A stretch of 64,000 bases of DNA from Escherichia phage isim, in sequence record MN850597.1, one strand, 5' to 3'. This document shows positions 44,489 through 64,000 of the stretch, piece by piece; positions within the stretch are counted from its first letter, which is position 1, and every line of letters begins with the position of its first letter. The notes beneath the pieces were generated by a model that was not told where the DNA came from, did not search any database, and saw only the letters and a program-made list of their open reading frames with translations. The position numbers were made by a program, and so were the translations under genes.

Positions 44489-44490
44489 TC

Positions 44491-45867: not shown

Positions 45868-46064
45868 GGCGAAGATATCATTACCTGATGTGGAAGTTAT
45901 ATCATGGTGCTGCTAAAGCTTACCGCACCGTGTTTGGTAATGACAATCACTGCATTATGTTACACCTTACCGCCATTGAACATCACAATGAGTGGATTCG
46001 TGCAATCGTAATAGGTGACAAAGATTTTAAGTAAAGTATTGCTTTCTAGATGGAGACTGATTAA

Positions 46065-47265: not shown

Positions 47266-50200
47266 TTAACGAGAAAAGGTTGCGTAGGCTTCTAGACGAT
47301 ACTGCTGGTCACCAGGGAACATAACACCTATAGAGGCTGTCCCTAGAATCCTGCCTTCCTTTCCAGACTCCATTCTGAACCCTACCCATCCTGAACTCCT
47401 TGCAGCCTCGATGTTGTCGCTATACCCGAAAGTGGCAAGATCGTCAACACCAGCCCCAAACAGCAACTGAAGCTGACTTCTCGGAAGCCCTATAATTTCA
47501 GGAATATACGCACCAAAGTACACCATCTGCCCTACCTTAGGACCACTGCCGTACTCCATCGGTTTGCTTGTAGAGAAAGTCTTCATACCAGAAGTACCTG
47601 CCGGATTAGGGTATGCCCCGTTTGTTGCTGTACCTATCCACATTCTCCACTGTGGTGCCATCTGTTTGACAGTAAAAGATGTTGAAGACGTTTTGCGCCC
47701 TGCATCATCTGTAACTACAAACTTTATGGTGACATTCCCAGTAGCTTTAAATGTTACCAGTCCTGTGGTGGCATCCACTGTTGCAATGTTGGTATTACTA
47801 CTTTCCCAAGTCTTTCTAATCCCGGATACGTTGGAAGGGGTAATAGAAGGTTCCTGCATCTGCAGTTTACCACCAACAATCCCTATGCCGTTGCCAGGAT
47901 TATACAGCGCACCAACCTCGTCTATAATGTTCCCTGCTTTGAGACTATACTTCCTTGAGAAGTTGTAGGTTCCGTTATAAGTGTGTGTCCCTGAGAAGGC
48001 GACATCTGCCTTCCCGTAAGAGATGCAAACCAAAGCATACTTCCTGTCAGGCAACGTTTCTCCAGTCTCTGGGTGAGTTTTACCTACCTGGAACACACTC
48101 GGGTCAGTAGAGTCGTGACTATCACTAACGGAGCTTGGACCGCCCATCAACTGTGACAAACAATTCCTTACCCATGTCCAGTTATTATCGCTGGAGAAGT
48201 CCACAGTCAAATCAAACACAACCCACTCATTTGGCTTCCACACAGGTGTTGTAATGGACTTGCCTACACCACCTCCTTGGAGTGTTGCCGACTGTTCGGT
48301 GATCAGGGCCGCATAGGCCAGAGTTCCTAAACTCAGAGTCTGGCTTGCTGTCCTCACTACCTTAGAATCAGCATCTGTGAAGTTGTTGATGATTTGGAAT
48401 GTGCCATAAGTGTTTTTACAGGTAATTCTGGCGTTCAGCGTGTCAATCTTCCTCACATCTGCCATAGCAGTGTTAGACACAGAGAAGTCAGAAGCTTTAG
48501 CTGAGTTTGCCGCAACAGCAGGATCAACGTTAAGAGTTGCGTTGAACTGACAGGCAGGGGTAACCAGCAGCTTGTTATCACCTATTTGCTTCCATGAAAT
48601 ACTTTGGACAGGTAGATTCCATTTAATACCTGAGAAAACTTTAGCAACCCTTGGCCCCAAAGCTCCAGTCCTGTTGTCTTTACAGCACATAGACATGGTG
48701 ATCGTTGACGGAGTTGCCTGACCAAATAATTGCTGTGCTTTTGCAGAGGACATAGTGTAGAAATTGTCCTTAACAAACTCATCAGCGGCTAAAGATCCGT
48801 CAGCCCTCCACCATTGAACCTGATACCCTGTTTTGTCCCAACCACCGACCTGCTTCAGGTCTTCCCAGGAGATTTCCAGATCCCCAGTGGTAGGGTTGAT
48901 TGCAGCAGTTCCCGGTGTTCCGGGTGACCACAATGGAATATCGAACCACGCTGGTTTAACCGACTGCACTGCGCTGGGACCTATTGCGGCAGCAAGTTGC
49001 TGGCCCATCAATACGCGAGCATCTTTCACCAGACCCCGCTCGATCATAGACCCAGAGTAACCTTCTTTCTTGTAGGCTGAGGATCCGTTCAAATGGATGA
49101 GTCGGCTTGTGCCAAAGTTATGTGCTCCACCACCGTTGTCGTCTGCAAAATTGGTTATGATTCTATCCCTGATATTTTTCCATGCCCTGCCCCCAATCTC
49201 ATAGTCATGGTCATAACATCTTTGCAGTGTTGTCCAGCAAATGATCGCCATCCTTCTACCATCGCTGAATCCAAAGGCCTGATCGTTAAGCTCTCTCCAC
49301 AAGTAGCAGTTAGTGGTCCACATGGCCCTATGAATGTTAAACCAGTTTATAGATTTGGCTGAGTTGTCCCACTGAGTCCCAGGTAATTCAGGCCATACTG
49401 CATTAACCAGCATGTCTTCTGTTCCTGCATCAACCAAGAACCCTCTTACCTTCTTACCCATGCCTACCCTATCTTTTGCAATCCAGCTGCCAAACAATCT
49501 CAGTTTTGGACCGTAGACAACATCTTCCGGATGCTCAAAAGAAACATATTTTAGGTATATTGTAGGGTCACCATAGGTGCCATCACAAACAGCTTTGTGC
49601 ATGTTCTCGCCAAGGTCTAGACGAAGTCCTGTTACAACTTTAGACGTGTCGGTGAATTTGTCTGTTAAATCAAACTCATACCACCACCAACCTGCACCCA
49701 ACAATACTTTCTTACAACGCTGTGCGTCTGTATCAGATATTCTCTTATCCCCTGCAAAAGGTGAGTCAGCAAACTGATAGTGCAGAGCGATCTCAAAAGG
49801 ATGTGTGGATGTCCCGTTTTCTGCAAGAACTTGTTTACCTATCAGGTCGCACTTAATGATCATCACAACACGTCTGTACCCATTGGCAACTGGAACGTCG
49901 AACGGATACCTTGCACCATCCATATTCGCATGCAAAGCTGCGAAATTTATGTATGGGTCAACAGCGTTACCTAAAGTTTCAGGCCCTGGGATCATCTTGT
50001 ACTTCTTGACCTGTCCCATGATATAGTCGCTGCCGTAGGTTGCAGCCTCGAAGCAAGAACCGCTGTCAGGCAGTTCAGCAGGCCCCCAAAAGTATGCCCC
50101 GTAACAATTATAGAACCACTTGTTAGGGTCATAGTTATTCTTGAAGGTCTGAACCTCGTTTGCCTGTTTTGTCAAGAAAACCTGAGTATCTGTAAAGATT

Positions 50201-52902
50201 GCAGGATTTACCCTTGCCTGACGCGGAGGGTAACCTGTAGTTTGGTTAAACCACAAATTACAAGAGTAATCCCTCATATAGTCATAATCAGAGTATTTGT
50301 TTACATCTTCGTTCCAACACATGTTTAGGTTGGTACCGCCCATGCATACAATATATTCTGCGACATACTTATCACTTCTGGTAGGAATACCTATGAACCA
50401 TCTGTTAACAGGCTCATCCCAAGCTGTGCGCTCATCTTTAACGCAGATAGCAATCCAGTCATGTGTTCCTGTTTTCTTGCACACATCTCGCTTCATACCG
50501 TAGTAGAACTCTTTAGTATTCGGCTCAGGTGCATTTATCAGATAACTCCATGCCTGATTTGCATAAGTCCCATTGGTGCGCGGATCATGATCAAAGGCAT
50601 ACATGATGATCCTTTCCCCACCAAGATGTTCGCCAAGAGTAACTTTGACATTCACATCGCCGTAACCATTGCGAACAACATCCATATTATCAATAGAGAT
50701 ACCTCTGGGCGTGTAGGCAATTTTCAGCGAGCTATCTTCACTAGTGCCGCCAAGTGTAATCCCTATGTTGTTTGTTGTCCCGTCGACATATCTTACTGTA
50801 GCTTCCCAGCGTATTCCGAAATATCCTGCATCATGGCTGACAATTTTCAGTGTACGAGCTCCCGGGTGAGGTTTTCCAGGATCAGGCCAAGGGTCTGGGT
50901 GTTCGTGAACAGTCAACGACGTTCCGTTCTGCTCATTAACCTGCAACATTTTACCACCCTTGCCATTAGGATTGAACTCCCACAAGGCTTGTGTTTTCAC
51001 AATATTGTCATACGTGGCGCGTCTTTGATCGTAGATCTCTTGGGTCACATCATAAGTGACTGATCCAGCATCCATTCTGTGGAGTCTGACCATATACGAT
51101 GTATCCCCTTCTACTGCAGGCTGGGTCCCATTCAGCCCAAAGTATACAGTATCGTTAACATGGAACTGCTTGTTTCTACCGACAGTATGCCACTTGCCGT
51201 TGGACGGATACGCAGGAACTATGGTGTTCCAGTTCAAAGTTCTTGTCGTATGGGTTCTGCCTGTGCCATGCTTGTCATGATAGGTTATTTTTACAGAGTA
51301 CAGGCCACGTCTGTTAACATTTCTGTTATACTGGGTAACAACAACTTCGTTGGCCCCACCGTGGTTCCAGTTGGTGGAGAATTGGTAATTTGCATCTGTA
51401 ACAACCGTACCTGCAGCATTTACCAACTCAATCTTGTCAATAATGAACGTAGCCCCCTCTGGCTGAGGCTTCAATTTCATCTTGACCGTGTCACCAATGT
51501 AGATATTGCTAACACTACTAACACCATTAACGTCGAAAATATCATCAACGCCCCAACTGTCTACTGGGACATTTTTATACCAATTCTCAGGAACCTCTGT
51601 GAACCCCTGACTATTAAGTCTGCCGCCAAACAGGTTATTAGAGCCTGCAAAACTTCCCCTTGGGATGCCTGACCACCAAAGTTTGCCATTAACAACAGTA
51701 AAGGTCCCTAAGAAACCTTCTCTGTGGATACCCTGGAAATAAACACTTTCTGTCCAGCTTACTGGCATCCGTTGCTCGACGTATTTAGCCGTAGCCAGAG
51801 CCTGATAGTGAATAAAATTAGCCCTAGGACTGTTGTTTGCAGATTGTGCACCAATATCATTGCACAGATTGCGAGAGAAGCCACGATACTGTTTGGTGCC
51901 ATTATTGAAGAAAATGCCACTTGTGCCGTATCCACGAGCCATTATCACCTCATGGGTGTAGGTGATATTTAAGGAACGCCATGTGTCATCTCCCCAGACG
52001 TCTTGCCCGTAGAATACGTTAACAAGCTGTTGGTCATCAGGTTTGTGCATCCTTTCTGTGGCTATAATTGCACCATTAGGTCCACACATGAACCCTTTCC
52101 ATGTCTCGCCCACCGGGATGCCTTTAAACTGGTCAAGAGTCACATGCTCGGCTGGATAAACTAGTGTGTTTTTGCTGTTATTTCTTAAGAAATCGTAACC
52201 TGCAATCCAGAATCCGTTAGGACCACCAAAAATAACCGAGTTGTCATGAACTTCACAATTAATTCTTGGATTTTTCCAAGGACCTGTCTCTGGACTTTCA
52301 GATGTTTCACCGATCTTAACTGGAGTAGCGTGTTGACTTTTGTCAACATGAAGAGAGCCGTAAGTATTATTGCCAGAGCCGTACAGGTGAAGCATACCAT
52401 CAGCCTCTGGTGCAGCAATTACCCACACTGTATTGTTTACGCCACCCATTACTTCAACAAGTCTCTCAGGATGGGTGTCCAAATGCAACCCTGTTACGAT
52501 CTGTTCCGGCAAAGGTGTCCACTCTCTGACACAAACATCGTTTCCACCTGCTGCCTCCGATCCGATAAGACCAGCTGTGCAACCAATATAGAAAAATTTA
52601 TTATCGAATGTGCGGATTACAAATGCACGGTCAGCTCTCCAAACATGGTCTACGTTCCAAGCTGCCTCATTAGGATAGTTTATTGTATCAAGATCTCCAG
52701 TCCGACACTCTCCGAACCTATTATAGCCAGTAATATTAAGCTGACCATCATCAAAAAGTATAGCTAAGCTATTTACATAGGATACTGTGTTGCTTGTACC
52801 ATCACTGTTGTCTATTGGGTATGACAGAACAGCAAGTTCCTTAATTCCACCCCTCTTATCGAGGAAATGACGACCAAGTTTTAGCAAAGGGATTGGAAGC
52901 AT
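47266..52902 (-). CDS. very large virion protein, probable tail fibre/adhesin with Ig-like (Big_2-type) domain (1878 aa)
   Basis: Ig-like segment SGIRKTWESSNTNIATVDATTGLVTFKATGNVTIKFVVTDDAG; first gene of the tail module; RBS GGAGAA. Confidence 0.6.
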   Translation of the reverse strand: MLPIPLLKLGRHFLDKRGGIKELAVLSYPIDNSDGTSNTVSYVNSLAILFDDGQLNITGYNRFGECRTGDLDTINYPNEAAWNVDHVWRADRAFVIRTFDNKFFYIGCTAGLIGSEAAGGNDVCVREWTPLPEQIVTGLHLDTHPERLVEVMGGVNNTVWVIAAPEADGMLHLYGSGNNTYGSLHVDKSQHATPVKIGETSESPETGPWKNPRINCEVHDNSVIFGGPNGFWIAGYDFLRNNSKNTLVYPAEHVTLDQFKGIPVGETWKGFMCGPNGAIIATERMHKPDDQQLVNVFYGQDVWGDDTWRSLNITYTHEVIMARGYGTSGIFFNNGTKQYRGFSRNLCNDIGAQSANNSPRANFIHYQALATAKYVEQRMPVSWTESVYFQGIHREGFLGTFTVVNGKLWWSGIPRGSFAGSNNLFGGRLNSQGFTEVPENWYKNVPVDSWGVDDIFDVNGVSSVSNIYIGDTVKMKLKPQPEGATFIIDKIELVNAAGTVVTDANYQFSTNWNHGGANEVVVTQYNRNVNRRGLYSVKITYHDKHGTGRTHTTRTLNWNTIVPAYPSNGKWHTVGRNKQFHVNDTVYFGLNGTQPAVEGDTSYMVRLHRMDAGSVTYDVTQEIYDQRRATYDNIVKTQALWEFNPNGKGGKMLQVNEQNGTSLTVHEHPDPWPDPGKPHPGARTLKIVSHDAGYFGIRWEATVRYVDGTTNNIGITLGGTSEDSSLKIAYTPRGISIDNMDVVRNGYGDVNVKVTLGEHLGGERIIMYAFDHDPRTNGTYANQAWSYLINAPEPNTKEFYYGMKRDVCKKTGTHDWIAICVKDERTAWDEPVNRWFIGIPTRSDKYVAEYIVCMGGTNLNMCWNEDVNKYSDYDYMRDYSCNLWFNQTTGYPPRQARVNPAIFTDTQVFLTKQANEVQTFKNNYDPNKWFYNCYGAYFWGPAELPDSGSCFEAATYGSDYIMGQVKKYKMIPGPETLGNAVDPYINFAALHANMDGARYPFDVPVANGYRRVVMIIKCDLIGKQVLAENGTSTHPFEIALHYQFADSPFAGDKRISDTDAQRCKKVLLGAGWWWYEFDLTDKFTDTSKVVTGLRLDLGENMHKAVCDGTYGDPTIYLKYVSFEHPEDVVYGPKLRLFGSWIAKDRVGMGKKVRGFLVDAGTEDMLVNAVWPELPGTQWDNSAKSINWFNIHRAMWTTNCYLWRELNDQAFGFSDGRRMAIICWTTLQRCYDHDYEIGGRAWKNIRDRIITNFADDNGGGAHNFGTSRLIHLNGSSAYKKEGYSGSMIERGLVKDARVLMGQQLAAAIGPSAVQSVKPAWFDIPLWSPGTPGTAAINPTTGDLEISWEDLKQVGGWDKTGYQVQWWRADGSLAADEFVKDNFYTMSSAKAQQLFGQATPSTITMSMCCKDNRTGALGPRVAKVFSGIKWNLPVQSISWKQIGDNKLLVTPACQFNATLNVDPAVAANSAKASDFSVSNTAMADVRKIDTLNARITCKNTYGTFQIINNFTDADSKVVRTASQTLSLGTLAYAALITEQSATLQGGGVGKSITTPVWKPNEWVVFDLTVDFSSDNNWTWVRNCLSQLMGGPSSVSDSHDSTDPSVFQVGKTHPETGETLPDRKYALVCISYGKADVAFSGTHTYNGTYNFSRKYSLKAGNIIDEVGALYNPGNGIGIVGGKLQMQEPSITPSNVSGIRKTWESSNTNIATVDATTGLVTFKATGNVTIKFVVTDDAGRKTSSTSFTVKQMAPQWRMWIGTATNGAYPNPAGTSGMKTFSTSKPMEYGSGPKVGQMVYFGAYIPEIIGLPRSQLQLLFGAGVDDLATFGYSDNIEAARSSGWVGFRMESGKEGRILGTASIGVMFPGDQQYRLEAYATFSR

Positions 52903-52950: not shown

Positions 52951-54696
52951 TTAACGTTGTGCAATTACTACGTCTACAATATCACCAACACCACAATACG
53001 TTAATTGCAGCAAGGTAACACTGTTAGCCTTGTTGTTAATAACAGGTGTTGCCGACAGGATAGCATACTTATCGTGCAAAGTCACGTTGTGACCTACAGC
53101 ATCCTGAATGACATAGATAACTGCAGTGAATGGATAAGGTTTATCTTCCGCTGATGTCCCAGGCCACTGTCCTATTGTAAAATCCCCTTTCGCGTGGACA
53201 ACATACATGCTGGCCTGCCCGTTAGGTGTCCATGTCCCACTGGACGCGTCAACCTCCTCTAAGTCAAAATCTACCTTTCCTGCGTGGAAAGTAGGGGCAG
53301 TAATGGTTTTACCCGCCTCAATTTCTTGAGAGGTGGTTATCTTACCACTGGAGTTAATGCCATTACAGACAAAGTTGACATTAGAGAAGTCTGGCAGCCA
53401 CCCGGTCACTGTGCCGGATATTTCAAGGTTGTGAAGGTGGGTGGTGCCAGTCCCTGCGGCGTTTAAACTAACATCTCCATTTACCTGCAAGTTTCTGGTA
53501 ATGTTGCAGTTTTCAGAGTTTGCAGTTGTTGCAGTTAAAGTGGTGGTGGTTAGCTCGGTAATTGTACCTTTATTGGCTGTAAGCCCTTCTCCTTCAAAAG
53601 TTGCACGCTCATTGACTCTTAGAGTATTCAGAGCTATATTTTGGATAGAGGCTGTACCTCGAATAACTACAGACCCGCCAACCTCCAAATCGCCATTTAT
53701 CAATGCATCACCCGTGCTTTCAATATAGCTAGGGTAGATCATGGTGCCATCGACAGAGTATGTTATCCCTGTAACGGTACCTGTCACCTCAAGGTTCTTA
53801 ACCCTGGTGGTCCCATCGACCTGCAATGTCGGTTCGGTTGCTGCCTTCATGGCATTACCACGAATGTACACGTAGTCAAAAAAGTTATTACCCAGACCAT
53901 CAAAATGCACATCGTTATTATTAGCCACTGGTTTCCCAGAAGTTATAGTGTCAGCTATAACCCTGTGGGTGGACACTTCATGAGGTTGCAGCTCTGTACT
54001 TCTCCAGTCTGCATGCTTAGGATCGCTCCACGCAAAAGTAAGTGTAGAAGTATTTGCCGTGAGGATTAGATTCCTAAAGCGTGCAGTAGAATCTGCCCCA
54101 TTAACAGGTCCATGTAAGGTAAGGGTGCCACCAACTATAGTGTTAGCGAGTTCTGTAAGACCTTTTACCACCAAAGACCCTACAGTAACTTTCATCCCCT
54201 CCATGGCTTTAAATATGCTATCAACATAGTCAACAACAAACTCTGTGTTTGCTATGGACTCTGACTTATCGTCCATTGGAGGTGTAGGTACTCGTGGGTC
54301 ACCTTCGAACCTCGGGCTGTTAAGTTTTGCGTAGTATTTTGCCATTACTGCAGAGTCGGTATATAATCTCCAGTTTGGAGATTGTGAAGGATCTGCTGGC
54401 ATTCTAACCGGGTTAGATTTTGATGCTGCGGGAGCGTACCACCACTGAGGGCCTGTGTCCCCTTTAAACTCGTACAGCTGGTTAAAAACTGTTGTGGATG
54501 CACCATACGCCCAAGGGATCGGTGGCGTTTTAAAATAAAGGGTGTCAAGCATGGCTTTTCGTACCGTAGGGATAGTGGTCCCATCCTCTACGACAACTTC
54601 ATCCACAGCGTTACCGTTGACAATCAAGTGCAAACGTTCAGAATCAACAATTACTTGATCTACCGCCTGCTCGAAGCTTGTCATGTCTTGCGCCAT
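52951..54696 (-). CDS. tail fibre protein (581 aa)
   Basis: Gly/Thr/Asn-rich beta-repeat segments (GTVTGITYSVDG ...) in the tail gene cluster. Confidence 0.55.
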   Translation of the reverse strand: MAQDMTSFEQAVDQVIVDSERLHLIVNGNAVDEVVVEDGTTIPTVRKAMLDTLYFKTPPIPWAYGASTTVFNQLYEFKGDTGPQWWYAPAASKSNPVRMPADPSQSPNWRLYTDSAVMAKYYAKLNSPRFEGDPRVPTPPMDDKSESIANTEFVVDYVDSIFKAMEGMKVTVGSLVVKGLTELANTIVGGTLTLHGPVNGADSTARFRNLILTANTSTLTFAWSDPKHADWRSTELQPHEVSTHRVIADTITSGKPVANNNDVHFDGLGNNFFDYVYIRGNAMKAATEPTLQVDGTTRVKNLEVTGTVTGITYSVDGTMIYPSYIESTGDALINGDLEVGGSVVIRGTASIQNIALNTLRVNERATFEGEGLTANKGTITELTTTTLTATTANSENCNITRNLQVNGDVSLNAAGTGTTHLHNLEISGTVTGWLPDFSNVNFVCNGINSSGKITTSQEIEAGKTITAPTFHAGKVDFDLEEVDASSGTWTPNGQASMYVVHAKGDFTIGQWPGTSAEDKPYPFTAVIYVIQDAVGHNVTLHDKYAILSATPVINNKANSVTLLQLTYCGVGDIVDVVIAQR

Positions 54697-54705: not shown

Positions 54706-54972
54706 TTAAGCTTTTTGCTCTTCGTTTTTAACGTGGTCAGGGTGCTGGCAACCCCACCGGAGCGAGATGAATTTGCTAATAAGCTGGGGGCAGGCTACTG
54801 AAGGTGCATATATCCACGCATACCATTCAGGAAGCGTATCATTATACCCCATATGAATAAACACCCCAGTCATCACCGCCATGCCTATGTTCGACCATAG
54901 CTTAGATTGGGATACTTTCGTAGGGTCATCAGATGCCGCAACCAGTCCCCATAAAAACTGAGTTAGTTTCAT
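54706..54972 (-). CDS. small membrane-associated protein in the tail-fibre cluster (88 aa)
   Basis: Two hydrophobic segments; function not assignable. Confidence 0.4.
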   Translation of the reverse strand: MKLTQFLWGLVAASDDPTKVSQSKLWSNIGMAVMTGVFIHMGYNDTLPEWYAWIYAPSVACPQLISKFISLRWGCQHPDHVKNEEQKA

Positions 54973-54983: not shown

Positions 54984-56030
54984 TTAAGCATAAGATATAG
55001 TGATCCATTGACCGTTTACAAGTTTTTGGATAGCACCTGTCCAGTAATCACCTTGATAAGGGTGTTTATAAGCGTAGTTACCAGAGCACATCACATGTCC
55101 AGGGTAGACTCTTGACTCTCTGTAGGTGGTTTTGAAACGGTTCGCTATCCTTACATCGTCAACCCCTCTACTGGGCATAGGGACAGTAAGGTTACCACTA
55201 CCGTCTGCGCTGTTACCGTTTACCCTGCGGACCACGTTTCTTCCACCAACGGTTGCATATTGGCCTCTAACGGTTTCATCGTTACAATCAACTCTTCCAC
55301 CTATTTGAGCGCTTCCGCAGGATTGTTGTCCGTTAACAGTGGCTCTTGGTATCGTGACCGCATTGGCATTTGCAGAGGAACTTTTTACATCGTTGCATTC
55401 AAGATTTCCTTGGATAGCCAGTCTTGCACGGTTGGCAGTTATAGCATTGAGCTTCATAGCCGAAAACACAGGCTGCCCACCAGAAGGTTGAAATCTCCAA
55501 CGGAACCCGTCTATTTGGTGAGAAGGATCATCAAGGTCTGTGCCGTCAGCACCACCGATGTTGTCCATAATCCAGAAGTCCATCGTCGTCTTGTCTGGAG
55601 TTATGGTGGTATATATTGCCGCATTGTCTGTTGACGCAGATGCAAACTCGATTCTTTGAAGGCCTAAAGTTTGAGTCTGAGTCATTATGTCTCCAGACTT
55701 GTCAACATACAGATCGTCCATTTCTTCAGGCGAGTATACATTGAGAACTTGACGTGCAGCAGCTTTGTCTGGAACGTCTGCTAGATTATTAGTGACCCTT
55801 AAGAATCTATTATCCCATCCTGGGACAACATCTTCTGTTAAATGCTTTAACCACGCAGAAAGCATGTGAAGTTCAAAGTTAACAACTTCACATGCCACTC
55901 TTTGTGTCATATCCCAACCTTTCAATCTCTCTTCTTTTTTTGGTTGAGACTTATTCAACTCTCCCGTATTTTCAAGCACAACATCCTGATTGGCCCAAAT
56001 ATCAAGAGGGATAACTGGTTTAGTCATCAC
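54984..56030 (-). CDS. receptor-binding tail fibre protein, paralog B (348 aa)
   Basis: Shares TPDKTTMDF, DGFRWRFQP, LNAITANRA and C-terminal KLVNGQWITISYA with 57042..58082. Confidence 0.6.
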   Translation of the reverse strand: MMTKPVIPLDIWANQDVVLENTGELNKSQPKKEERLKGWDMTQRVACEVVNFELHMLSAWLKHLTEDVVPGWDNRFLRVTNNLADVPDKAAARQVLNVYSPEEMDDLYVDKSGDIMTQTQTLGLQRIEFASASTDNAAIYTTITPDKTTMDFWIMDNIGGADGTDLDDPSHQIDGFRWRFQPSGGQPVFSAMKLNAITANRARLAIQGNLECNDVKSSSANANAVTIPRATVNGQQSCGSAQIGGRVDCNDETVRGQYATVGGRNVVRRVNGNSADGSGNLTVPMPSRGVDDVRIANRFKTTYRESRVYPGHVMCSGNYAYKHPYQGDYWTGAIQKLVNGQWITISYA

Positions 56031-56116
56031 GTTCTCCTGAGAAAATTCCTTAGGACTATTTTAACACTTTAGGGAACAAAATGCAAGAACGGAGTCCTTT
56101 CCGTTCTGACCTTTGT

Positions 56117-56431
56117 TTACCTTTTACTATGCTCTACGAGCATGTGCAAAATCTTTTGTACATCGGCTCTGATGCCGGAGACATCTGTCCTGACATCCTG
56201 CTTAAGGTCGTTAATATCGGCCTCTAGCTTGCTTAACCGGGTCTCTATAACGGAATCAAGTTTATCTTTTGTAACCATACTGTTTTTCACTAAGATGAGG
56301 TCTTTCTCCAGCTCTTCCAACCTCTTGGAAATGCCTTTCCATTTGGTGTGCCACTGGTTGAAAGCCCATACACAGATCGGGACAACGGTACCCATGCAGA
56401 TACCGTACAATGCCGCCAAATCCAACTCCAC
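56117..56431 (-). CDS. small coiled-coil protein with N-terminal TM segment (104 aa)
   Basis: Hydrophobic N-terminus then heptad-like ELEKDLILVKN...LEADINDLKQD. Confidence 0.45.
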   Translation of the reverse strand: MELDLAALYGICMGTVVPICVWAFNQWHTKWKGISKRLEELEKDLILVKNSMVTKDKLDSVIETRLSKLEADINDLKQDVRTDVSGIRADVQKILHMLVEHSKR

Positions 56432-56442
56432 AACACCTCCTC

Positions 56443-57027
56443 TTAGAGGGTAGGTCGCTCCGGGAAGAAAATGTCAGGGGCTTTAGATGTATCTATTTCA
56501 AGAAGTTTTACCCTGTACATTTTCAAATCTCTGATGTTACGTTTCTGGTCATCAGTAAGATCATATTCAAGGTCAATCATGTCTTGATAGGCACCAATTC
56601 TAGCAGTAGCCCAAGCAAGTTCTGTCTCTATGACACCCTCTGCCTGTTGAACAAAGAATTCATTGTCTGTGACAAATTCATCACCAACTAAACGCAAAGC
56701 GTCGTGGTGAAGCATAATGTTTTCTGGTACCTCTTCTTTTTTGGCGATAACCACACGAAGACCTGGAGCAGGCCATAAGGCATCAGGTTCTTCTGTAGAT
56801 GTCTTAAGAATTCCCTTCTCGTCAACAAGTAGGAAGATACACCCTGGATTTTCTTGTCGTAATGTTCGTGACTGCACATACCAATCACCATCATCATTAC
56901 GTAAAAAATACCCAGTGTATGCGGTGTAATCCTCGACCTCTTGAGGGGTCAGCTCCTTGGTTTCCTTGTTGGAGTGGTATTCGCCAGATCCCGGTTGGTA
57001 AAGTTTAAACTCTTGAAGTATTTTCAT
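56443..57027 (-). CDS. tail fibre assembly protein (Tfa-type chaperone) (194 aa)
   Basis: C-terminal LKMYRVKLLEIDTSKAPDIFFPERP matches the Tfa-type signature W..YR..L..(V/I)D.S.APDI.WP..P; immediately downstream of a fibre gene. Confidence 0.7.
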   Translation of the reverse strand: MKILQEFKLYQPGSGEYHSNKETKELTPQEVEDYTAYTGYFLRNDDGDWYVQSRTLRQENPGCIFLLVDEKGILKTSTEEPDALWPAPGLRVVIAKKEEVPENIMLHHDALRLVGDEFVTDNEFFVQQAEGVIETELAWATARIGAYQDMIDLEYDLTDDQKRNIRDLKMYRVKLLEIDTSKAPDIFFPERPTL

Positions 57028-57041
57028 GCTAGTCCTCCGAT

Positions 57042-58082
57042 CTATGCATAATTAACAGTGATCCATTGACCATTTACAAGTTTTTGTAAAGGTCCTGCCC
57101 AGTAGGTTGAACCACGCATCTCTTTTTTGTCACCGAAATGCCAGCCTGTGACAACGTATCCGTTGCGGATTGGAGATTCAGAAACGCCGTCCACAAGTCT
57201 TGCACCGATTCTGATGTCTTGCACACCTGTCTGCGGGATAGTGATCGTTACATCACCGTTACCGTTAGCCGTCACTCCATTCACGGAGCGCACCACATTT
57301 CTGTTACCGACAACACAGTGCTGGCTTCTTACAACCATACTGTCACAACTTGCACCACCATTAACATATACTGACCCAGCCGTCAACTGACTGGCCACAT
57401 TACAGTTGGTGAATGTTGCTGTATTGCTGATAGTAAGGTTATTGCACCTCATGTTATCGACAACTTCAACATTGCCTACCACTTTCAACAGCGCACGATT
57501 AGCCGTGATCGCGTTAAGGTACATCAAAGTGAACTCTGGATTAATATCCGGCTGAGTTGGCTGGAATCTCCAACGAAACGCATCTACTGTAGATGTACCA
57601 CCATCATCAAACGACCCGGTATTATCACTTAACCCAAAGTCGAGGGTTGTCTTATCTGGGCCAATAGTTGTCTCTATCCAAGCCTTATCTGTCTCGGCAG
57701 CTTTAAAGTTGATACGTTGCAACCCCAAGGGGCCTGTCATTGTATCACCTGTAACTTTTACATACCTGGCGTCTGCCTCTTCCTTAGTGATAATCCCAAG
57801 GTTTCTACGGGCAACAGGAATGTTCAAAAGATCGCTCAAGTTATTATCACGTACCAGATAACGGCCTTCTTGAGCTGGGATCTGCTCGTCAGCAATGTAT
57901 TTTGCCCAAGTCCCGAGCATATTGAAAATATAGTTAAGTTCTTCACATGAGGGCTTTTGACCAAGATCCCAACCTTTTCTCCACAAATCATCAATCGGGC
58001 GTAGCCTGTTCTGTCTGTGGGTGTTAGGCAGAACCTGATCCTCCTCTGCCCAAATCTCTAATGGAAAACTAGGTTTTGACAT
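57042..58082 (-). CDS. receptor-binding tail fibre protein, paralog A (346 aa)
   Basis: Paralog of 54984..56030 (GPDKTTLDF, DAFRWRFQP, LNAITANRA, KLVNGQWITVNYA); followed by the Tfa gene. Confidence 0.6.
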   Translation of the reverse strand: MSKPSFPLEIWAEEDQVLPNTHRQNRLRPIDDLWRKGWDLGQKPSCEELNYIFNMLGTWAKYIADEQIPAQEGRYLVRDNNLSDLLNIPVARRNLGIITKEEADARYVKVTGDTMTGPLGLQRINFKAAETDKAWIETTIGPDKTTLDFGLSDNTGSFDDGGTSTVDAFRWRFQPTQPDINPEFTLMYLNAITANRALLKVVGNVEVVDNMRCNNLTISNTATFTNCNVASQLTAGSVYVNGGASCDSMVVRSQHCVVGNRNVVRSVNGVTANGNGDVTITIPQTGVQDIRIGARLVDGVSESPIRNGYVVTGWHFGDKKEMRGSTYWAGPLQKLVNGQWITVNYA

Positions 58083-58094: not shown

Positions 58095-60167
58095 TTATGA
58101 GAAGTCTGGCGGGACAACATCTTCTACATACCCTTTCAGAGCAACCTGCCCCATATGAAGCACGGTAGAATCTCTAGCGGTAACAGTGATGCTGTCAGAC
58201 ATTACTTGCGGGTATGCCCACACATACTGTTTTACCTCAGGATATCTATACTCTATAGTTGCCATGTTTCCGCAGATACATCTCCATAAAAATTCTTGGT
58301 AATTCCTGGTTGGGTCGTAACCATATACCGGAGCAAGCTCTTTACTAGGAACGAACCCTGCAAGGTATTGTATTTCAGACGGTTGCCAACCTAACTTAAC
58401 GATAGGTATGTTTACAGACTCTTTTGCCTTTTCAATACCTCCCTGCATCACCCAATCGTAGCACTCGGTGCAGAAGAAATCAAGAGCACCTGCTTCCTTT
58501 TTATATTGGTCAGCAAGGTTAAGCTTTTGCGTAAGCTCGGTTTCCATAATGGTTGGGAAAAACAGCAGAGCTGTCATCTGAGCTGATGCAGCGTGTGCCT
58601 TTATTGCCTTTGAAATAGCCGCAATACGAGCGCCAAGCTTACCACGACAAAATGCTACATACTTATCGTAAACACCGCCAGTTTTAGGATCGTCAATAGT
58701 CCCAATATCTAATGCATACTCGCCTGTCTCATCATAAAACGCCTGTTTTGTAGGGTAATCATAAATACAAGGTCTACGAGTATCGGTATTGTACCACCAC
58801 CACGGTTCACCAACCTGCATAATCACTGGCAGGTTGTTTCTCATAGCGGCTGATGCAAAATTCTTAAATACTGCAGTAAGGAAATTCATACCCTCTTCAA
58901 TGGTTGGAGACAGGAGGTAGCTACAAGGTGTATACCCTGTTTTAGCGTAGTTATCGTTCCAGTCTCTTTGGGTCCATTCCAACGGGCAGGCATCGCTGAA
59001 AAGCTCAAAACTTACAGATTGCATAACGTCGAAGTTATGTCGTTTGGCATTGTACATAAAATCATCATGCCATTTATAAGCTGCAGCGTTTAGCGCTCCT
59101 GTTCTGTTTATAGACCATTGGGTTCCTGACCATGTGTAGTCATAATAATGACTCATACCAACATAATGGTTTATGGTTCCGGTATAGCCCAGACGCTTGA
59201 TATTGTTCAACACCCTTAAAGGAGACACGTTCCACATATCGTCATATGCGGTGCAGATCCCAACATCGTGCTCTCTCACCTGGATATTGTTAAGTTGCAT
59301 CATTTTCCAGCCTGTGTCTGGCTGAAGCAGATCTAGGCGCAACTCACACTCTACATTTTCCGTTCTCGGGTCTGTGCTATTACTTACCCAGTCTTTAGGC
59401 ATAAGCGGTATTAAAATCCTTCTCACCTGCCGAGGATCAACACCCATCATGTTGTTGTTCTGGTCCATCCCGACGCAGTCCTCAAAATCAATATGAATTT
59501 CTGCAACATTCTTATCCTCTGAGATGCTGACAGCATATTGAGCTAAAGGAACATAGATGATTGTGCCATCAACAAGGTCTACAGTCATAATCATCTTTTC
59601 AGGAGTGGAGAAGTTGCTGGCGTTGGTTATTGACATTCTGAACCAAAGCTTGGTGTTTCTCATCTCATAGTGATCATCAAACCCAATACCGAAATGGTCA
59701 TACTTGTCAACTGTTTCCCAAATGCACCCAGCCATACCTCCATATGTTCTTGACACTAAACGGTTAATACAACAGTTGTTATCTGCAACAATACAGGTAC
59801 TTTCAGTCTGCTGAGTGGTTGTAACCCAATATCTTGGGTGAAACATTCTCTCCTCAACAGTATCCCAAGATATCCTGTCAAGATTCTCATCTGAAACTAT
59901 TGTACATTTCGCCCTTTGTGTTCCAATCATCACCCCTTGAGATTTTGATGAAAACTCCATAAAGAAGCTTCTTGGCAACCTGTTGGGTAATTTGTCAACA
60001 ATTTCCACGGGGATCTCAATACTGGTTGCCCCAACTGGGATAGTTACATCGCCCTCAACATGATCATAATCCCTACCAGGAACGGCAGTATCCTGAACTG
60101 TTCGGTAATGAAACCGTGCAGCCATTGTAGAGTAATCACGGTAAGGTTTAAAAACAGCTGTTGCCAT
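58095..60167 (-). CDS. virion structural protein, tail/baseplate-associated (690 aa)
   Basis: Large ORF inside the tail module; no motif recognised. Confidence 0.5.
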   Translation of the reverse strand: MATAVFKPYRDYSTMAARFHYRTVQDTAVPGRDYDHVEGDVTIPVGATSIEIPVEIVDKLPNRLPRSFFMEFSSKSQGVMIGTQRAKCTIVSDENLDRISWDTVEERMFHPRYWVTTTQQTESTCIVADNNCCINRLVSRTYGGMAGCIWETVDKYDHFGIGFDDHYEMRNTKLWFRMSITNASNFSTPEKMIMTVDLVDGTIIYVPLAQYAVSISEDKNVAEIHIDFEDCVGMDQNNNMMGVDPRQVRRILIPLMPKDWVSNSTDPRTENVECELRLDLLQPDTGWKMMQLNNIQVREHDVGICTAYDDMWNVSPLRVLNNIKRLGYTGTINHYVGMSHYYDYTWSGTQWSINRTGALNAAAYKWHDDFMYNAKRHNFDVMQSVSFELFSDACPLEWTQRDWNDNYAKTGYTPCSYLLSPTIEEGMNFLTAVFKNFASAAMRNNLPVIMQVGEPWWWYNTDTRRPCIYDYPTKQAFYDETGEYALDIGTIDDPKTGGVYDKYVAFCRGKLGARIAAISKAIKAHAASAQMTALLFFPTIMETELTQKLNLADQYKKEAGALDFFCTECYDWVMQGGIEKAKESVNIPIVKLGWQPSEIQYLAGFVPSKELAPVYGYDPTRNYQEFLWRCICGNMATIEYRYPEVKQYVWAYPQVMSDSITVTARDSTVLHMGQVALKGYVEDVVPPDFS

Positions 60168-60853
60168 TAACCCTCCTGTCTAGTTGCGTTTACTGTAATA
60201 CTTTCACAATAAATGGTTGTGGTGTCCCAATCAGGTCTTACGTCAGGAACATACAGCAAGGTAGCCAGCCCACCAACTCCAAACTGGTTTTCTTCCCATA
60301 CTGATCCGAAGCCAAGAGCTGTAGAGTCCCCTTCAAAACCAAAAGCTTGCCCTTGCGATTCTGTAAGACGCAAATGACAAGGCAATGGTAGCATATCTAA
60401 GATCTGATCGATAGACTGCAATATGTCAAAGCAAGTTTTTCTAATATTTATGTCAAACCTGAAGTTGTCTCCTTTCCACGTATCGAAATTGTCTCTTCCG
60501 AACAATTGTCGCAAGGTGGAGATGACATCTTCGCGAGTCCCGCCCCTTGATGCTGCGGCCTGCTGAATAATTAGTGTGGCACGAAAATCAGCATCTGAAA
60601 GTCCATTCCTAAGAATACCAAGTTGATTACCAACTTCGTCAAGGTATCTTCCGCTGGCATTGTTAAGCAATCTTCCTTCAGCCAAACCTACCAGCATCTT
60701 ATCAACATCCTCCAACCTTTTAAGGTATACGGTTAAGAATGTGACTAAATTAACCTTCTCAGCCAGAAAATCTCCAGGCAGGTAGTCAAGACCTCCCTGA
60801 ACAAAATCTGGCAGAGTGTGGATGTGGTTAACATCCGACTTAATCTCTGCCAT
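60167..60853 (-). CDS. baseplate/tail protein (228 aa)
   Basis: Position next to the baseplate J-like gene; overlapping junction. Confidence 0.45.
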   Translation of the reverse strand: MAEIKSDVNHIHTLPDFVQGGLDYLPGDFLAEKVNLVTFLTVYLKRLEDVDKMLVGLAEGRLLNNASGRYLDEVGNQLGILRNGLSDADFRATLIIQQAAASRGGTREDVISTLRQLFGRDNFDTWKGDNFRFDINIRKTCFDILQSIDQILDMLPLPCHLRLTESQGQAFGFEGDSTALGFGSVWEENQFGVGGLATLLYVPDVRPDWDTTTIYCESITVNATRQEG

Positions 60854-60864: not shown

Positions 60865-62355
60865 TTAAATAGTTTGTTGGAAAGTTATATTACTTTCGTC
60901 GAGGTCAAACACCTCGGTCATGTTCGCAACAATATCGTTTGTAGTGTAAGCTTCATCAGAAGCTCCTACGGATTTAACTTGAATTACCAGCCTATTAAAT
61001 CTGCCTATTGACACAGCAGCAGATGCAGCACCTACCAATTGGATATTATACAACGTATCTGCAACATCCAGTCCGTTAACAACCTGCAAAAGAGCCTCTA
61101 TAATGGCATCTTTTTCGGTTGTAGAAAGCGCAGCACCGGAGTAGGTAATTCTTACATCTAGGCGGTAGGTGTTTGCCTTGGAGTAATAAATTCTTTCAGT
61201 TTGACCGTCAGATGTAGTGACATCGTAGAAAATATTACCATAAGTCCTGTTCGTACAGGCTATAGTTTGGTAAAGTGCTTGGCAAATGTCTTCCGTTGCA
61301 CCACCAAACACAACCACTTGGAACTTGTAAGGAGGTATACCTTTAGCATCAGTTTTATCGGTGTTGTTGGAGAACACTCTCACTTTCTCAACACCTTTCA
61401 CCTCGCTTACAGCGCTAAGGATTGCAGGACGGGTAGCCTTAGATGTTAACTGTTTTGTGCTGGAAGCTCTTAAGCGATACTCTGAGTCTTTCTCAACATC
61501 CCTGCCCTCATTGAATCTTTCTCGGTTGGTAAGCTTGATAAATCCACTAGGAGTAGGTGACATTGTTGTCACGGTTTCTGCTTCTCTTGACAGCTCACCA
61601 GCCTCGTTAGCGATAACATCCAGTGTGATAGTTCTTTCCCCTACAATCGGGGATACTCTGAAATCTACCCTACTGTTAAGTCCAACTTGATCAAGATTCG
61701 AATTGTACCCTATCCACAACGTTCCTGTCAACATATCGATCTGAATCAAATCGTCGTTCAACAGGGTTGTATTATCGACAATGAATTGCTTAATCTCTCC
61801 GTAAAAGCTTGGCAAATCAGAAGAGTCCAGAGATTTATCTGTTAAAACCAGGCTTTTTGTTTTGATACTTCCATCTGTCTGGTTGGTAATTTGGAAGTTG
61901 TATTTCCCAATCCTTAGGTCTGGAGCATTTATTCTGTGAGCAATAAGATTCCCTGCTACTTGCACATCGTTGCTAAGAACAAAGTTGCCACTGTCCAGCG
62001 TATAAGTTTTGGAATCATAAATCATATTGTACGGCACAGTTGTGTTGATTGTCAACTGGCAGGTACCTGATGATTTAGAACGGCCTCTTCGGTAAATACC
62101 CTGTCTTCCAAGAAGCTCATCTAGGTAGATACCTTCTGCCCCATACAGCGTCTGTGATGCGTATACAGATGCTGCCATAAGAATAAGTTGATACTCTCGC
62201 TCGTTGAAGATAGTGGTCAGCTTATCTGCAACGGAGTTACTCTGTACGTTGAAGTTTTCGCCAAAAGCACGGATCAGGCTTTGCTTAGTTTCAACGATTA
62301 GGTCATTTAGGGTTGGTATAACGAAACCAGCCTCTGTCAATCCATACTTAGCCAC
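60865..62355 (-). CDS. baseplate J-like protein (496 aa)
   Basis: N-terminal region follows the baseplate-J pattern (hydrophobic/acidic alternation, ...LYGAEGIYLDELLGRQGIYRRG...). Confidence 0.55.
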   Translation of the reverse strand: MAKYGLTEAGFVIPTLNDLIVETKQSLIRAFGENFNVQSNSVADKLTTIFNEREYQLILMAASVYASQTLYGAEGIYLDELLGRQGIYRRGRSKSSGTCQLTINTTVPYNMIYDSKTYTLDSGNFVLSNDVQVAGNLIAHRINAPDLRIGKYNFQITNQTDGSIKTKSLVLTDKSLDSSDLPSFYGEIKQFIVDNTTLLNDDLIQIDMLTGTLWIGYNSNLDQVGLNSRVDFRVSPIVGERTITLDVIANEAGELSREAETVTTMSPTPSGFIKLTNRERFNEGRDVEKDSEYRLRASSTKQLTSKATRPAILSAVSEVKGVEKVRVFSNNTDKTDAKGIPPYKFQVVVFGGATEDICQALYQTIACTNRTYGNIFYDVTTSDGQTERIYYSKANTYRLDVRITYSGAALSTTEKDAIIEALLQVVNGLDVADTLYNIQLVGAASAAVSIGRFNRLVIQVKSVGASDEAYTTNDIVANMTEVFDLDESNITFQQTI

Positions 62356-62460: not shown

Positions 62461-64000
62461 TTAGTCGTGAGACTCGTTCCAAGGTCCCTGGAAGCTTGAG
62501 TTAGAACGACTAACGATCACAGTGGGACAGGAGATTGTGACACCTGTCACGCTAGACGTTGACCACGGTGTGTAAATCTCGACAATAATGTCTATAGTTT
62601 GTTCACCTAGACCAGTTATCCCTACCGCACACATGCCGTTGTTGTCGTTTCCGTACTTCTTACCTGCAAGGATTTGATGTCCGGCTATCCAAACGTTAAG
62701 CTGGGAGCCAGACAATGTCCCGTTTAGTTTAAAGAAGAATGTTACGTTCTTACCTTGTCCTGAAACGTTGTCCACATATCTCCACCTCCAACGGCAAACC
62801 CTCTGCTGCGAGTTGTATACTGGAGGACAGTCACCGTAGGTTCTGTGTGCAACTATTGCACCTTCGAACTGGTTAGCACGGATAACAGAAGCTTCTACAC
62901 GCCCACGGAAGGTACCTCCAGTTGCATCTATGGTACCCCTAAAGTTACCATTATTGGCATAAACATCTCCACGGAAGGTACCACTGGTGGCGTTAACTGC
63001 CCCTGTGAAGTTACCAGAACTGGCGTTGATGTTGCCTTTCACCCACACATCCATAAATTGGGCGTGCCCGTTCTTGTTAATGTACCAACCGTATTTATGG
63101 TACCCGTTGCCATCGTAGTTGTTTGACGAAATTTCTTGTGCGATCTTGGCAGAGGAGATCGTGCCATTCTCTATAAAAGCGTCTTTCAAGAACGCTTGGT
63201 TGTTCTTGATTGCGAAAGCAAGGGTTGCTGTTCCATTTCCAGGGTTGTATACCGCAAAATTGTTTGCACTAACCATGAAGTAGGATTGAACTTGTCCTCC
63301 AGACCCCTCCATGCCTAGCTGGATACCTGCAACATACTTATTCCCTGCAGAGTCTACCTGAATCTTAGCTCCCCACTGAGCATTTATTTTACCCTCAAGT
63401 GTTGTTACAGCTTTAGAGGTATTAGATACTGTAGCCCTGAGCTCATCAATATTACCCATTTCGTCAACAATTTCTTGTTTTGCAGAGGTAAGTTCTTGAC
63501 GGATCGCTGTGGCTGTATTATTAACAAGATCAACTGTTGTACTATTAGTTTCTTGAATAGATGCTTGCAGATTGGCAACCTCTTTCTGCACATCATCTTC
63601 CAGCTTGGTGATCTTCCCTGTAGCTGCCACCAGATCCTGCTTAATAGCTTCCGTTGTCTTATTTAGCAGATCTGTTGTTGCCTTGTTGGTTTCTTGAATA
63701 GAGGAGTTAAGTTTACTCTCAGTGTTCTTCAACTCTTCCCGCAGAGTACCTTGAGTTGCAGTTATTTGCTCACTCAATGCTTGAGTTTTACGATTAACAA
63801 GATCAACGGTTGATCTATTTGTTGTCTCGATTAGTGACCCAAGCCTACCAGACTCTGCTGCAAGTTTATCGTCAAATGATTGCTGAGCTGCTACCAGCTT
63901 ACTGTTAAGGGCAGAAATTTCTCCATTAACCCCTGTAAATTTTTCTGTCGTCTCTCTGACAACACCCTCTATTGTATCCCCAAGCTCTTCAAAAATGCTA
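62461..64000 (-). CDS. tail fibre protein with coiled-coil shaft and Gly/Asn/Thr-rich distal repeats; partial, N-terminus beyond the window
   Basis: Repeats GNFTGAVNATSGTFRGDVYANNGNFRGTIDATGGTFRG; the frame stays open and repetitive upstream of the listed ATG (63777) to the window edge. Confidence 0.6.
   Translation of the reverse strand, partial: SIFEELGDTIEGVVRETTEKFTGVNGEISALNSKLVAAQQSFDDKLAAESGRLGSLIETTNRSTVDLVNRKTQALSEQITATQGTLREELKNTESKLNSSIQETNKATTDLLNKTTEAIKQDLVAATGKITKLEDDVQKEVANLQASIQETNSTTVDLVNNTATAIRQELTSAKQEIVDEMGNIDELRATVSNTSKAVTTLEGKINAQWGAKIQVDSAGNKYVAGIQLGMEGSGGQVQSYFMVSANNFAVYNPGNGTATLAFAIKNNQAFLKDAFIENGTISSAKIAQEISSNNYDGNGYHKYGWYINKNGHAQFMDVWVKGNINASSGNFTGAVNATSGTFRGDVYANNGNFRGTIDATGGTFRGRVEASVIRANQFEGAIVAHRTYGDCPPVYNSQQRVCRWRWRYVDNVSGQGKNVTFFFKLNGTLSGSQLNVWIAGHQILAGKKYGNDNNGMCAVGITGLGEQTIDIIVEIYTPWSTSSVTGVTISCPTVIVSRSNSSFQGPWNESHD

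Follow-up and report, generated by a model that had tools for sequence, protein, structure and literature searches.

Why an rV5-like phage should encode two short tail fibers alongside one Tfa-type chaperone, and whether the fibers are redundant, differently positioned or specific for different core types, is the question raised by a locus in Escherichia phage isim (MN850597.1), of which we analyzed a stretch of 64,000 nucleotides (the window). An answer would aid engineering and cocktail design. Therapeutic and biocontrol efforts against pathogenic E. coli commonly consider rV5-like phages as candidates, and the terminal recognition of the LPS core by these phages sets a floor to host range and determines how resistance mainly arises (waaG-type mutants). 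The window shares 99.8% DNA identity with the rV5-like Vequintavirus phages Alma and ime, and the region is the short tail fiber module of Vequintavirus (rV5-like E. coli phages), with the window representing one more isolate. The rV5 locus is orthologous gene for gene with the same order and orientation, is 98.3% identical in DNA, and differs in no material way; across 116 Vequintavirus records the locus is almost invariant. Matching loci in the BASEL phages Bas48–Bas54 are annotated in GenBank as 'short tail fiber protein' (twice) and 'tail fiber chaperone'.

The pair with its shared chaperone was already known from publications in 2013 and 2021, and finding it here is real but ordinary. Kropinski (2013) described rV5 gp30 and gp33 as a pair with 42% identity and proposed that they recognize two LPS chemotypes (PMC3606486), and Maffei (2021) reported two paralogous short tail fibers and a chaperone, homologous to Mu GpS/GpU and without allelic variation (PMC8594841). 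The value of the present analysis lies in confirmation and in a sharper, testable version of the idea that points to the N-terminal docking domain and not to the tip alone.

The two fiber genes are co-oriented, as the initial annotation recorded, and lie on the minus strand, with STF1 (the rV5 gp33 ortholog, 346 aa) at 57042–58082 and STF2 (the gp30 ortholog) at 54984–56030 if translation begins at a GTG (348 aa); the C-termini quoted for both match exactly. For STF2 an ATG start at 56027, giving a 347 aa product from 54984–56027, is favored over the GTG by its Shine-Dalgarno spacing and by the GenBank annotations. STF1 is 99.7% identical to rV5 gp33 at the protein level. The paralogs share 43% identity over their full length (BLASTP, E 9e-96), and both match phrog_4465 from end to end (STF1 1.8e-171, residues 1–346; STF2 1.7e-165, residues 2–348), which is the Vequintavirinae short tail fiber family against which they were tested (PHROG 4465; RBPseg class TC1). 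A tblastn search of the window revealed neither a third fiber copy nor an adaptor domain common to other fibers.

Similarity between the paralogs is not distributed as was initially described, namely as conserved N- and C-terminal blocks around a differing center, and the alignment instead places the best conserved block at residues 101–200 (55–70% identity). Identity is also relatively high at residues 1–20 (~60%), 251–280 (60–65%) and the last ~20 residues (~60%), and the variable stretches correspond to residues 21–100 (25–45%), 201–250 (11–25%) and 281–330 (21–35%). At the DNA level, similarity between STF1 and STF2 in the window is confined to the last 62 nt (82%).

Assignment of both genes as fibers holds up well, with an N-terminus homologous to the attachment domain of the solved short tail fiber of Pectobacterium phage phiTE and a tip homologous to that of Mu GpS. 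STF1 residues 1–108 constitute the baseplate-attachment domain and match the phiTE fiber (9cuy) with E 1.4e-19; STF2 is more divergent, matching over residues 1–83 (9cuy_c, E 2e-8), and the family profile matches the phiTE N-terminus at E 1.8e-34. The STF2 N-domain shares only 37% identity with its STF1 counterpart and has no RPIDDLW motif, which every single-copy homolog keeps. At the other end, the STF1 tip (residues 286–346) is Mu GpS-like (5yvq, E 1.7e-6 over residues 286–343), as is the family profile (E 1.1e-12). STF2 searched alone against the PDB gives no Mu GpS match, and the STF2 tip shows 44% identity to that of STF1 (E 5e-13). AlphaFold2 monomer models built from a 32-sequence alignment have pLDDT values of 62.9 and 59.9 with pTM ~0.3, and Foldseek returned nothing from the PDB at E ≤ 0.001; the fibers are expected to be intertwined trimers, which monomers cannot represent, and we therefore draw no structural conclusions from the models.

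Immediately following STF1 is the Tfa gene (56443–57027, minus strand, 194 aa; rV5 gp32 ortholog), which begins 15 nt past the STF1 stop codon and occupies this position in all relatives. Its initial identification as a Tfa-type chaperone is borne out by matches to PF02413 (Caudo_TAP; E 9e-12 and 45.7 bits, where the cut-off is 22.1; residues 121–192 aligning with positions 60–130 of the 131 in the profile) and phrog_136 (2.2e-36), and it is of the Mu GpU/lambda gpK type; a sequence search of the PDB gave no direct match to a solved Tfa. No other Tfa is encoded in the locus, and this one probably folds both fibers through their conserved extreme C-termini.

The next gene (56117–56431, minus strand; rV5 gp31 ortholog) encodes the small coiled-coil protein noted previously upstream of the second fiber, and its 104 aa product does have an N-terminal hydrophobic, transmembrane-like segment followed by a coiled coil. 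Its pairing with the second fiber is not sustained, since gp31 homologs directly follow Tfa in the single-fiber phages GAP31, Av-05, Salmonella R7 and BIS47; gp31 is ancestral to the locus and not STF2-specific, and because it is equally placed in phages with a single fiber we reject it as a second chaperone dedicated to STF2. It is under constraint (dN/dS ~0.05), belongs to phrog_5345 (unknown function), and has no Pfam match above the cut-off; sub-threshold coiled-coil matches (XhlA, EzrA, apolipoprotein) are compositional and were discarded.

Between gp31 and STF2 is an intergenic region (56031–56116) with several candidate control elements on the minus strand. A terminator-like hairpin (56107–56086) lies 3′ of gp31 and 5′ of STF2, followed by a promoter-like element (56086–56057) with TTGCAT and TAAAAT separated by 17 nt and an extended -10 TGT, and a Shine-Dalgarno sequence (AGGAG) precedes STF2. 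Two divergent lineages, L014 and L012, retain the motif TTGCATTTT...TG[CT]TAAAATA as well as the hairpin, whose stem differs in sequence there, and these elements may act as a terminator and a separate promoter for STF2.

Strong purifying selection acts on all genes of the module; the dN/dS ratios are ~0.02 for STF1 and ~0.065 for STF2, at dS values up to 0.33, and the STF2 reading frame is intact in every genome examined. The window phage was compared with L014 and L012. In a tree of the N-domains, STF1 and STF2 form separate clades, each with 100% bootstrap support across all three lineages, whereas the middle regions of all six sequences fall into one clade (82% and 78%). The tips behave differently again, as the L012 STF2 tip joins that of L012 STF1 (100%) and the STF2 tips of the window phage and L014 sit on a separate long branch. 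The two L012 tips are 84% identical in amino acid sequence, so the duplication is not always accompanied by differing tips. In the window phage and L014 the tips of the two paralogs (residues 286–346) are ~45% identical, with the difference mostly in residues 291–330, and the STF2 tip is 93% identical between these two lineages, with 69–80% identity for the remainder of STF2. Two points are thereby added to the published descriptions: both paralogs are maintained by selection, and, as judged from these sequences, the difference constant across the three lineages is in the predicted N-terminal attachment domain, with tip divergence being lineage-specific.

The single clade in the middle regions points to a single duplication, and comparison with single-fiber relatives suggests where the second copy was placed. 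In phages of the Seunavirus GAP31/PVP-SE1 type, Avunavirus Av-05 and Mydovirus BIS47, the module follows the baseplate wedge genes and ends with gp29 and a gp28-like fiber; its order is STF-Tfa-gp31-157 aa-gp29, such that a 157 aa polytopic membrane protein (phrog_7451) is found at the position of STF2. Their STF is 40–48% identical to that of the window, and the tips are of several unrelated types. One duplication probably occurred in an ancestor of the rV5-like lineage, with the second copy occupying the position of the 157 aa membrane protein gene. Recent gene conversion between the tips was considered and rejected: in the window DNA similarity is limited to the 62 nt at the end, and in L012 the tips are only 75% identical in DNA over 178 nt, so their similarity is either ancestral and retained or the product of a conversion long ago.

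Both paralogs are found in rV5 particles. Virion proteomics of rV5 detected gp30, gp33 and the Tfa gp32, in a whole-virion shotgun analysis that reports presence without stoichiometry (PMC3606486), and rV5 virions thus contain both fibers rather than the single paralog that would have counted against the initial annotation; the presence of gp32 is consistent with Tfa remaining bound, by analogy with Mu. Cryo-EM of Bas49 and Bas54 shows short-fiber density with a Mu-like tip in maps of 7.3–9.5 Å (EMD-51868 and EMD-51869), a resolution at which paralog identity, and one set versus two, are indistinguishable (PMC12143355). The phiTE short tail fiber N-terminus binds wedge 1 (PMC11972413).

Taken as a whole, the best explanation, and one in which we have somewhat better than even confidence, is that there are two types of short fiber that dock differently and coexist, possibly binding different LPS core variants. 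Both would dock through the N-terminal domain homologous to the phiTE domain that binds the baseplate wedge protein. The persistence of the N-domain difference in three lineages, together with loss of RPIDDLW from STF2, suggests that STF1 and STF2 most likely attach at different positions, and would coexist on each virion without competing for one site; it is from the N-domain divergence that distinct docking sites are predicted. On the branch leading to rV5 and L014 the STF2 tip appears to have diverged too, and the two sets could bind different LPS core variants. The dual receptor specificity put forward in the initial annotation is plausible in this putative form, but the alternative offered there, an expanded host range, fits poorly with a locus nearly invariant among the Vequintavirus records and with variation residing in the large lateral fibers, to which Maffei (2021) assigned host-range variation (PMC8594841). 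A second specificity is also not required by the duplication, given the similarity of the L012 tips and the waaG dependence that the phi92-like single-fiber relatives share (PMC8594841). Dependence on Glc I is reported for phage LL12 (PMC7229145) and for the BASEL phages (PMC8594841). The fullest version, in which duplication created a second docking class that places STF2 on another baseplate or fiber partner and the rV5 branch reads two LPS core epitopes, is put forward tentatively, as less likely than not. If true, these phages would carry two Mu-type short fiber sets simultaneously, served by one Tfa, as a fixed counterpart of the Mu DNA inversion.

The two fibers might alternatively bind the same conserved LPS core epitope (the Glc I region), with a second ring or position of short fibers contributing avidity or a better geometry for irreversible binding, and no new specificity. 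Such a role would suit the similar, co-clustering tips of L012 (84% identity), the waaC/waaG dependence of single-fiber relatives and the lack of allelic variation (PMC8594841), as well as the probable use of one Tfa by fibers with conserved extreme C-termini. However, the STF1 and STF2 tips have low identity in the window phage and L014, and the STF2 tip is preserved between these two while the rest of the protein changes, as if selection had fixed a binding surface of its own; we regard a common receptor as unlikely. If instead both fibers docked at the same six baseplate positions, they would compete, producing mixed virions or a heterogeneous population and a form of bet-hedging without a switch. 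Both N-domains do belong to the phiTE wedge-binding family, and the conserved hairpin and promoter-like element in front of STF2 could tune its expression, but the divergent STF2 N-domain and the conservation of a paralog-specific difference in all three lineages are what distinct partners would predict, making competition quite improbable.

Mixed trimers of STF1 and STF2 chains, with the shared Tfa initiating assembly from the conserved C-terminus, would be compatible with the single chaperone and with the last ~20 residues and the 101–200 block being the most similar parts. The shafts differ in length and contain indels, identity is lowest at 201–250, STF1 and STF2 differ in evolutionary rate, and to our knowledge no heterotrimeric fibers have been described for this family; we consider this arrangement very improbable. 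As the tip and chaperone are homologous to Mu GpS/GpU (PMC8594841), an invertible host-range switch of the Mu G-segment or P1 C-segment type, with one fiber expressed at a time, also comes to mind. It is refuted by the organization of the locus: both genes are complete and co-oriented, neither sharing its N-terminus or Shine-Dalgarno sequence with the other, no meaningful inverted repeats flank them (at best, one pair of 18 nt at 78% and another of 14 nt at 86%), and the seven-gene locus leaves no space for an invertase gene, all other ORFs being accounted for. Nor is STF2 a decaying duplicate, as its low dN/dS, its universally intact reading frame and its detection in virions (PMC3606486) attest; we give essentially no credence to either the switch or decay.

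Among the known systems, Mu GpS/GpU (PDB 5yvq, 9ki1) is similar in its C-terminal tip of ~60 residues, homologous to the STF tip, and in the Caudo_TAP-family Tfa directly downstream of the fiber. Tips of the Mu GpS type need Tfa for folding, and the STF tips are of that type; for both systems the literature gives LPS core glucose as the target (PMC8594841). The N-terminal two thirds of the window fibers are unrelated to GpS, the fibers are shorter (346–347 aa, compared with 504 aa in Mu), and Mu carries S/S′ tips and U/U′ chaperones on an invertible G segment with one set expressed, unlike the two complete co-oriented genes and single Tfa seen here. The flagellotropic phage phiTE (PDB 9cuy/9mjn) has an N-terminal attachment domain homologous to that of STF1 within a 554 aa fiber containing a coiled coil and Ig-like domains, and both phiTE and phi92 (fiber III, gp147) have a single such fiber in contrast to the two short paralogs here, one with a divergent N-domain. 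T4 gp12 is the analogy used in the literature for baseplate-borne short fibers that bind the LPS core irreversibly, and in the 2013 study by Kropinski both gp30 and gp33 resembled it by HHpred (PMC3606486); sequence searches of the STFs against the PDB did not return gp12, and T4 has one gp12 with the chaperone gp57A instead of a Tfa.

The genes flanking the module are also on the minus strand. Upstream, the gp34 ortholog (58095–60167, 690 aa) is an NGR-glycan-binding fiber or sheath-like protein, the NGR role being taken from the literature, with Pfam matches to TIM-barrel_NCTSP (4e-80), NCTSP_N (7e-13) and Calx-beta; in a BASEL record it is annotated as a lateral tail fiber with glycosidase and deacetylase domains. 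The wedge proteins, orthologs of gp35 and gp36, are encoded at 60167–60853 and 60865–62355. A 438 aa ORF at 62461–63777 was considered as a truncated gp37 and rejected, as the gene simply continues past the end of the window. Downstream of STF2, the gp29 ortholog (54706–54972) encodes an 88 aa membrane protein (phrog_1322, 2.7e-32), and homologs at the equivalent position in single-fiber relatives show that it is ancestral to the locus; for gp29, gp31 and the 157 aa protein, Pfam and PHROGs return only 'unknown' or 'membrane protein'. Beyond it is the gp28 ortholog (52951–54696), a 581 aa tail fiber (phrog_4549) annotated as a lateral tail fiber, whose L012 and L014 orthologs match Pfam Phage_phiTE_241_N/C. 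The gp29 ortholog has zero non-synonymous changes in six genome comparisons.

The region is part of a Vequintavirus (rV5-like myovirus) genome, and every gene of the locus lies on the minus strand. In order, it encodes the short tail fibre STF1 (57042-58082; 346 aa), the tail fibre assembly chaperone Tfa (56443-57027; 194 aa), a small membrane/coiled-coil protein (56117-56431; 104 aa), a second short tail fibre, STF2 (54984-56030; 348 aa from a GTG start), and a membrane protein (54706-54972; 88 aa), corresponding to rV5 gp33, gp32, gp31, gp30, and gp29 and to the BASEL labels 'short tail fiber protein', 'tail fiber chaperone', 'hypothetical protein', 'short tail fiber protein', and 'hypothetical protein', respectively. 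Starting STF2 instead at the ATG at 56027, six bases downstream of an AGGAG, yields a 347-aa protein, as in the GenBank annotation. Over these 3.4 kb the window shares 99.8% identity with Escherichia phages vB_Eco_Alma and ime, and 116 phage records match at 90-99.8% identity.

The observation of duplicated fibre genes with a Tfa between them holds, and its core annotation is correct; both the duplication and the dual-LPS hypothesis are already well documented in this much-sequenced phage genus. Maffei et al. 2021 described, in the Vequintavirinae sensu stricto, a pair of paralogous short tail fibres with their chaperone and related them by homology to Mu GpS/GpU, reported these genes to be without considerable allelic variation, and found that waaC and waaG mutants resist every member tested (PMC8594841); Piya et al. 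2020 traced the requirement of phage LL12 to the outer-core sugar Glc I (PMC7229145). The additions made here are modest: STF2 has replaced a membrane-protein gene, gp31 is ancestral, and the difference defining the paralogs lies in the N-terminal docking domain, not the tip.

STF1 and STF2 are true paralogs (43% identity over their full length, E 9e-96), and the C-termini quoted for them in the initial annotation are correct. Its description of similar termini flanking a divergent centre holds for the termini, with 60% identity in the first 20 residues and about 60% in the last ~20, but not for the centre. An identity profile in 20-residue windows places the most conserved stretch centrally, at residues 101-200 (55-70%), with low identity at 21-100 (25-45%), 201-250 (11-25%), and 281-330 (21-35%). 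The only DNA-level likeness remaining is a 62-nt direct repeat (82% identical; 54985-55046 and 57043-57104, 2058 nt apart) corresponding to the 3' ends of both fibre genes; recombination across it is possible and would remove Tfa, gp31, and most of one fibre.

In searches against solved structures, STF1 residues 1-108 match the N-terminal segment of the short tail fibre of Pectobacterium phage phiTE (9cuy, E 1.4e-19; 1.8e-34 with a family profile), which in phiTE is a trimeric joint fixing the fibre to the baseplate wedge-1 proteins (PMC11972413); the phi92 homolog gp147 ('fiber III') sits under wedge protein gp145 and is directed downward (PMC13450770). The STF2 match to this domain is weaker (E 2e-8). 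An N-terminal motif, RPIDDLW-KGWD-G-KP, is retained in phiTE and in every single-copy homolog and is replaced only in the STF2 type, by QPKKEERLKGWDMTQR. At the other end, STF1 residues 286-343 match the C-terminus of the Mu tail fibre GpS (5yvq, E 1.7e-6; profile 1.1e-12), and STF2 searched alone against solved structures gave no Mu GpS match. AlphaFold2 monomer models of both fibres had low confidence and no fold match, and no structural conclusion rests on them. In maps of Bas49 and Bas54 at 7.3-9.5 Å, RBPseg saw density for a short fibre whose tip is Mu-like, and could not tell the paralogs apart (PMC12143355). The fibre tip behaves as an exchangeable module. STF1 residues 287-344 (57045-57218) are 57-59% identical to the tips of tail fibre proteins in unrelated ~52-kb phages (Salmonella phages BP63, SE13, and UPF_BP2, and Escherichia phage JEP7), and single-copy homologs sharing one common N-terminus carry at least five unrelated tip types.

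Protein searches identified two more two-fibre lineages in metagenomes, L014 and L012, with the same gene order as the window; STF1 and STF2 are 87% and 78% identical to the window proteins in L014, and 74% and 45% in L012. We compared the three STF1s and three STF2s by identities and neighbour-joining trees for each domain. All six fall into one clade for residues 101-200 (82% support) and 201-285 (78% support), pointing to one duplication, and the trees indicate that it preceded the split of the three lineages. For residues 1-100, STF1 and STF2 form separate clades with 100% support each, STF1 being nearer to the single-copy fibres (52-58% identity) than to STF2 (35-41%). In the tip (286-346), L012 STF2 clusters with L012 STF1 at 100% support, the two being 84% identical as protein and 75% as DNA; the STF2 tips of the window and L014 share a long branch of their own, with 93% identity between the two and ~45% to STF1. 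The constant paralog difference among these sequences is therefore the attachment domain, and divergence of the tips is confined to the rV5/L014 branch.

The coiled-coil gp31 is present after Tfa in single-fibre relatives; it is therefore ancestral and no partner of the second fibre. Its homologs were found by tblastn in 223 phage records, single-fibre relatives among them. In GAP31 (Seunavirus), Av-05 (Avunavirus), Salmonella R7, and BIS47 (Mydovirus) the order is STF, Tfa, a gp31-like protein (104 aa), a 157-aa protein, a gp29-like protein, and a gp28-like fibre. The 157-aa product is a polytopic membrane protein (phrog_7451) whose start overlaps the gp31 stop (single-fibre loci L003, 5961-6434; L004, 5949-6422; L005, 5997-6470; L006, 5847-6320; compare window 54984-56116). 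It is absent from Vequintavirus, where STF2 occupies its place between gp31 and gp29. The single-fibre relatives thus have three small membrane proteins in a run (gp31-like, 157-aa, gp29-like) inside the tail-fibre cluster. The L005 record (PQ002170.1, Salmonella phage vB_Sen_SG_WM_RUS_R7) has Demerecviridae in its taxonomy line, probably in error; the locus shares synteny and close similarity with that of Seunavirus GAP31 (Vequintavirinae).

Immediately behind gp31, the 86-nt spacer that precedes STF2 carries a terminator-like hairpin; it also holds a TTGCAT-17-TAAAAT element whose -10 is extended by TGT. Two divergent lineages retain the hairpin and motifs, their stem sequences being different. 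STF2 probably begins its own transcription unit. The extended -10-like sequence TGYTAAAATA occurs four times in the window, always on the coding (minus) strand, versus 0.53 expected by chance: before STF2 (within 56057-56107) and at 6680-6689, 18670-18679, and 29751-29760. Three of the four lie between genes, 25-45 nt ahead of the start of a gene, and the STF2 copy follows the terminator-like hairpin. The motif probably marks a class of phage promoters.

The assignment of Tfa is secure: it scores 45.7 bits to Pfam Caudo_TAP, for which the gathering score is 22.1, and matches phrog_136 at 2e-36. Alignment of the Tfas of the three two-fibre lineages (window 56443-57027, L014 3995-4579, L012 1171-1785) with those of L003-L006 reveals an N-terminal insertion of ~21-26 residues (window Tfa residues ~12-33) common to the former and missing from the latter.

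Comparison of the window with six Vequintavirus genomes (dS up to 0.33) gives dN/dS values of ~0.02 for STF1, ~0.065 for STF2, 0.00-0.11 for Tfa, and ~0.05 for gp31, with zero non-synonymous changes in gp29. STF2 evolves at about three times the rate of STF1, and by these ratios both are functional genes. Kropinski et al. found gp30, gp32, and gp33 among the virion proteins (PMC3606486). Since both gp30 and gp33 are detected, the outcome that would have counted against the initial annotation, one paralog alone in virions, did not occur; the Tfa, too, is present in virions, like that of Mu. An invertible switch of the Mu kind and decay of one copy are both excluded, as both genes are complete and co-oriented, inverted repeats were not found at the locus, and STF2 is present in virions and has a dN/dS of 0.065.

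We propose, as the most likely mechanism, that both fibres are made late, that the single Tfa gp32 would fold both from their conserved C-termini, and that the folded fibres would then be built into the baseplate. STF1 and STF2 probably occupy different baseplate positions and coexist on each particle, because each has retained its own type of docking domain from the duplication onwards; less probably, they could compete for one site or form STF1/STF2 heterotrimers. Primary binding would involve the lateral fibres and the NGR-binding gp34, followed by binding of the short fibres to the LPS core. In a rival reading, both fibres could recognize the same receptor and provide extra avidity; L012 supports this, as does the identical waaG dependence of single-fibre relatives. 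Under the dual specificity raised in the initial annotation, the diverged STF2 tip in rV5-type phages may recognize a different core variant.

Between 16 and 21 'Campylobacter phage' records (host Campylobacter jejuni), including MG065635, MG065644, MG065655, MG065662, MG065672, MG065674, MG065676, MG065677, and MG065682, hold the E. coli Vequintavirus locus at ~98% DNA identity and are probably mislabelled or contaminant genomes. Elsewhere in the window, GC skew and AT skew flip sign at 40001-46000 (positive at ~40-46 kb, negative elsewhere), coinciding with an opposite-strand gene block just before the large fibre gene (47266-52902; 1878 aa), an Ig-like gp27 ortholog.
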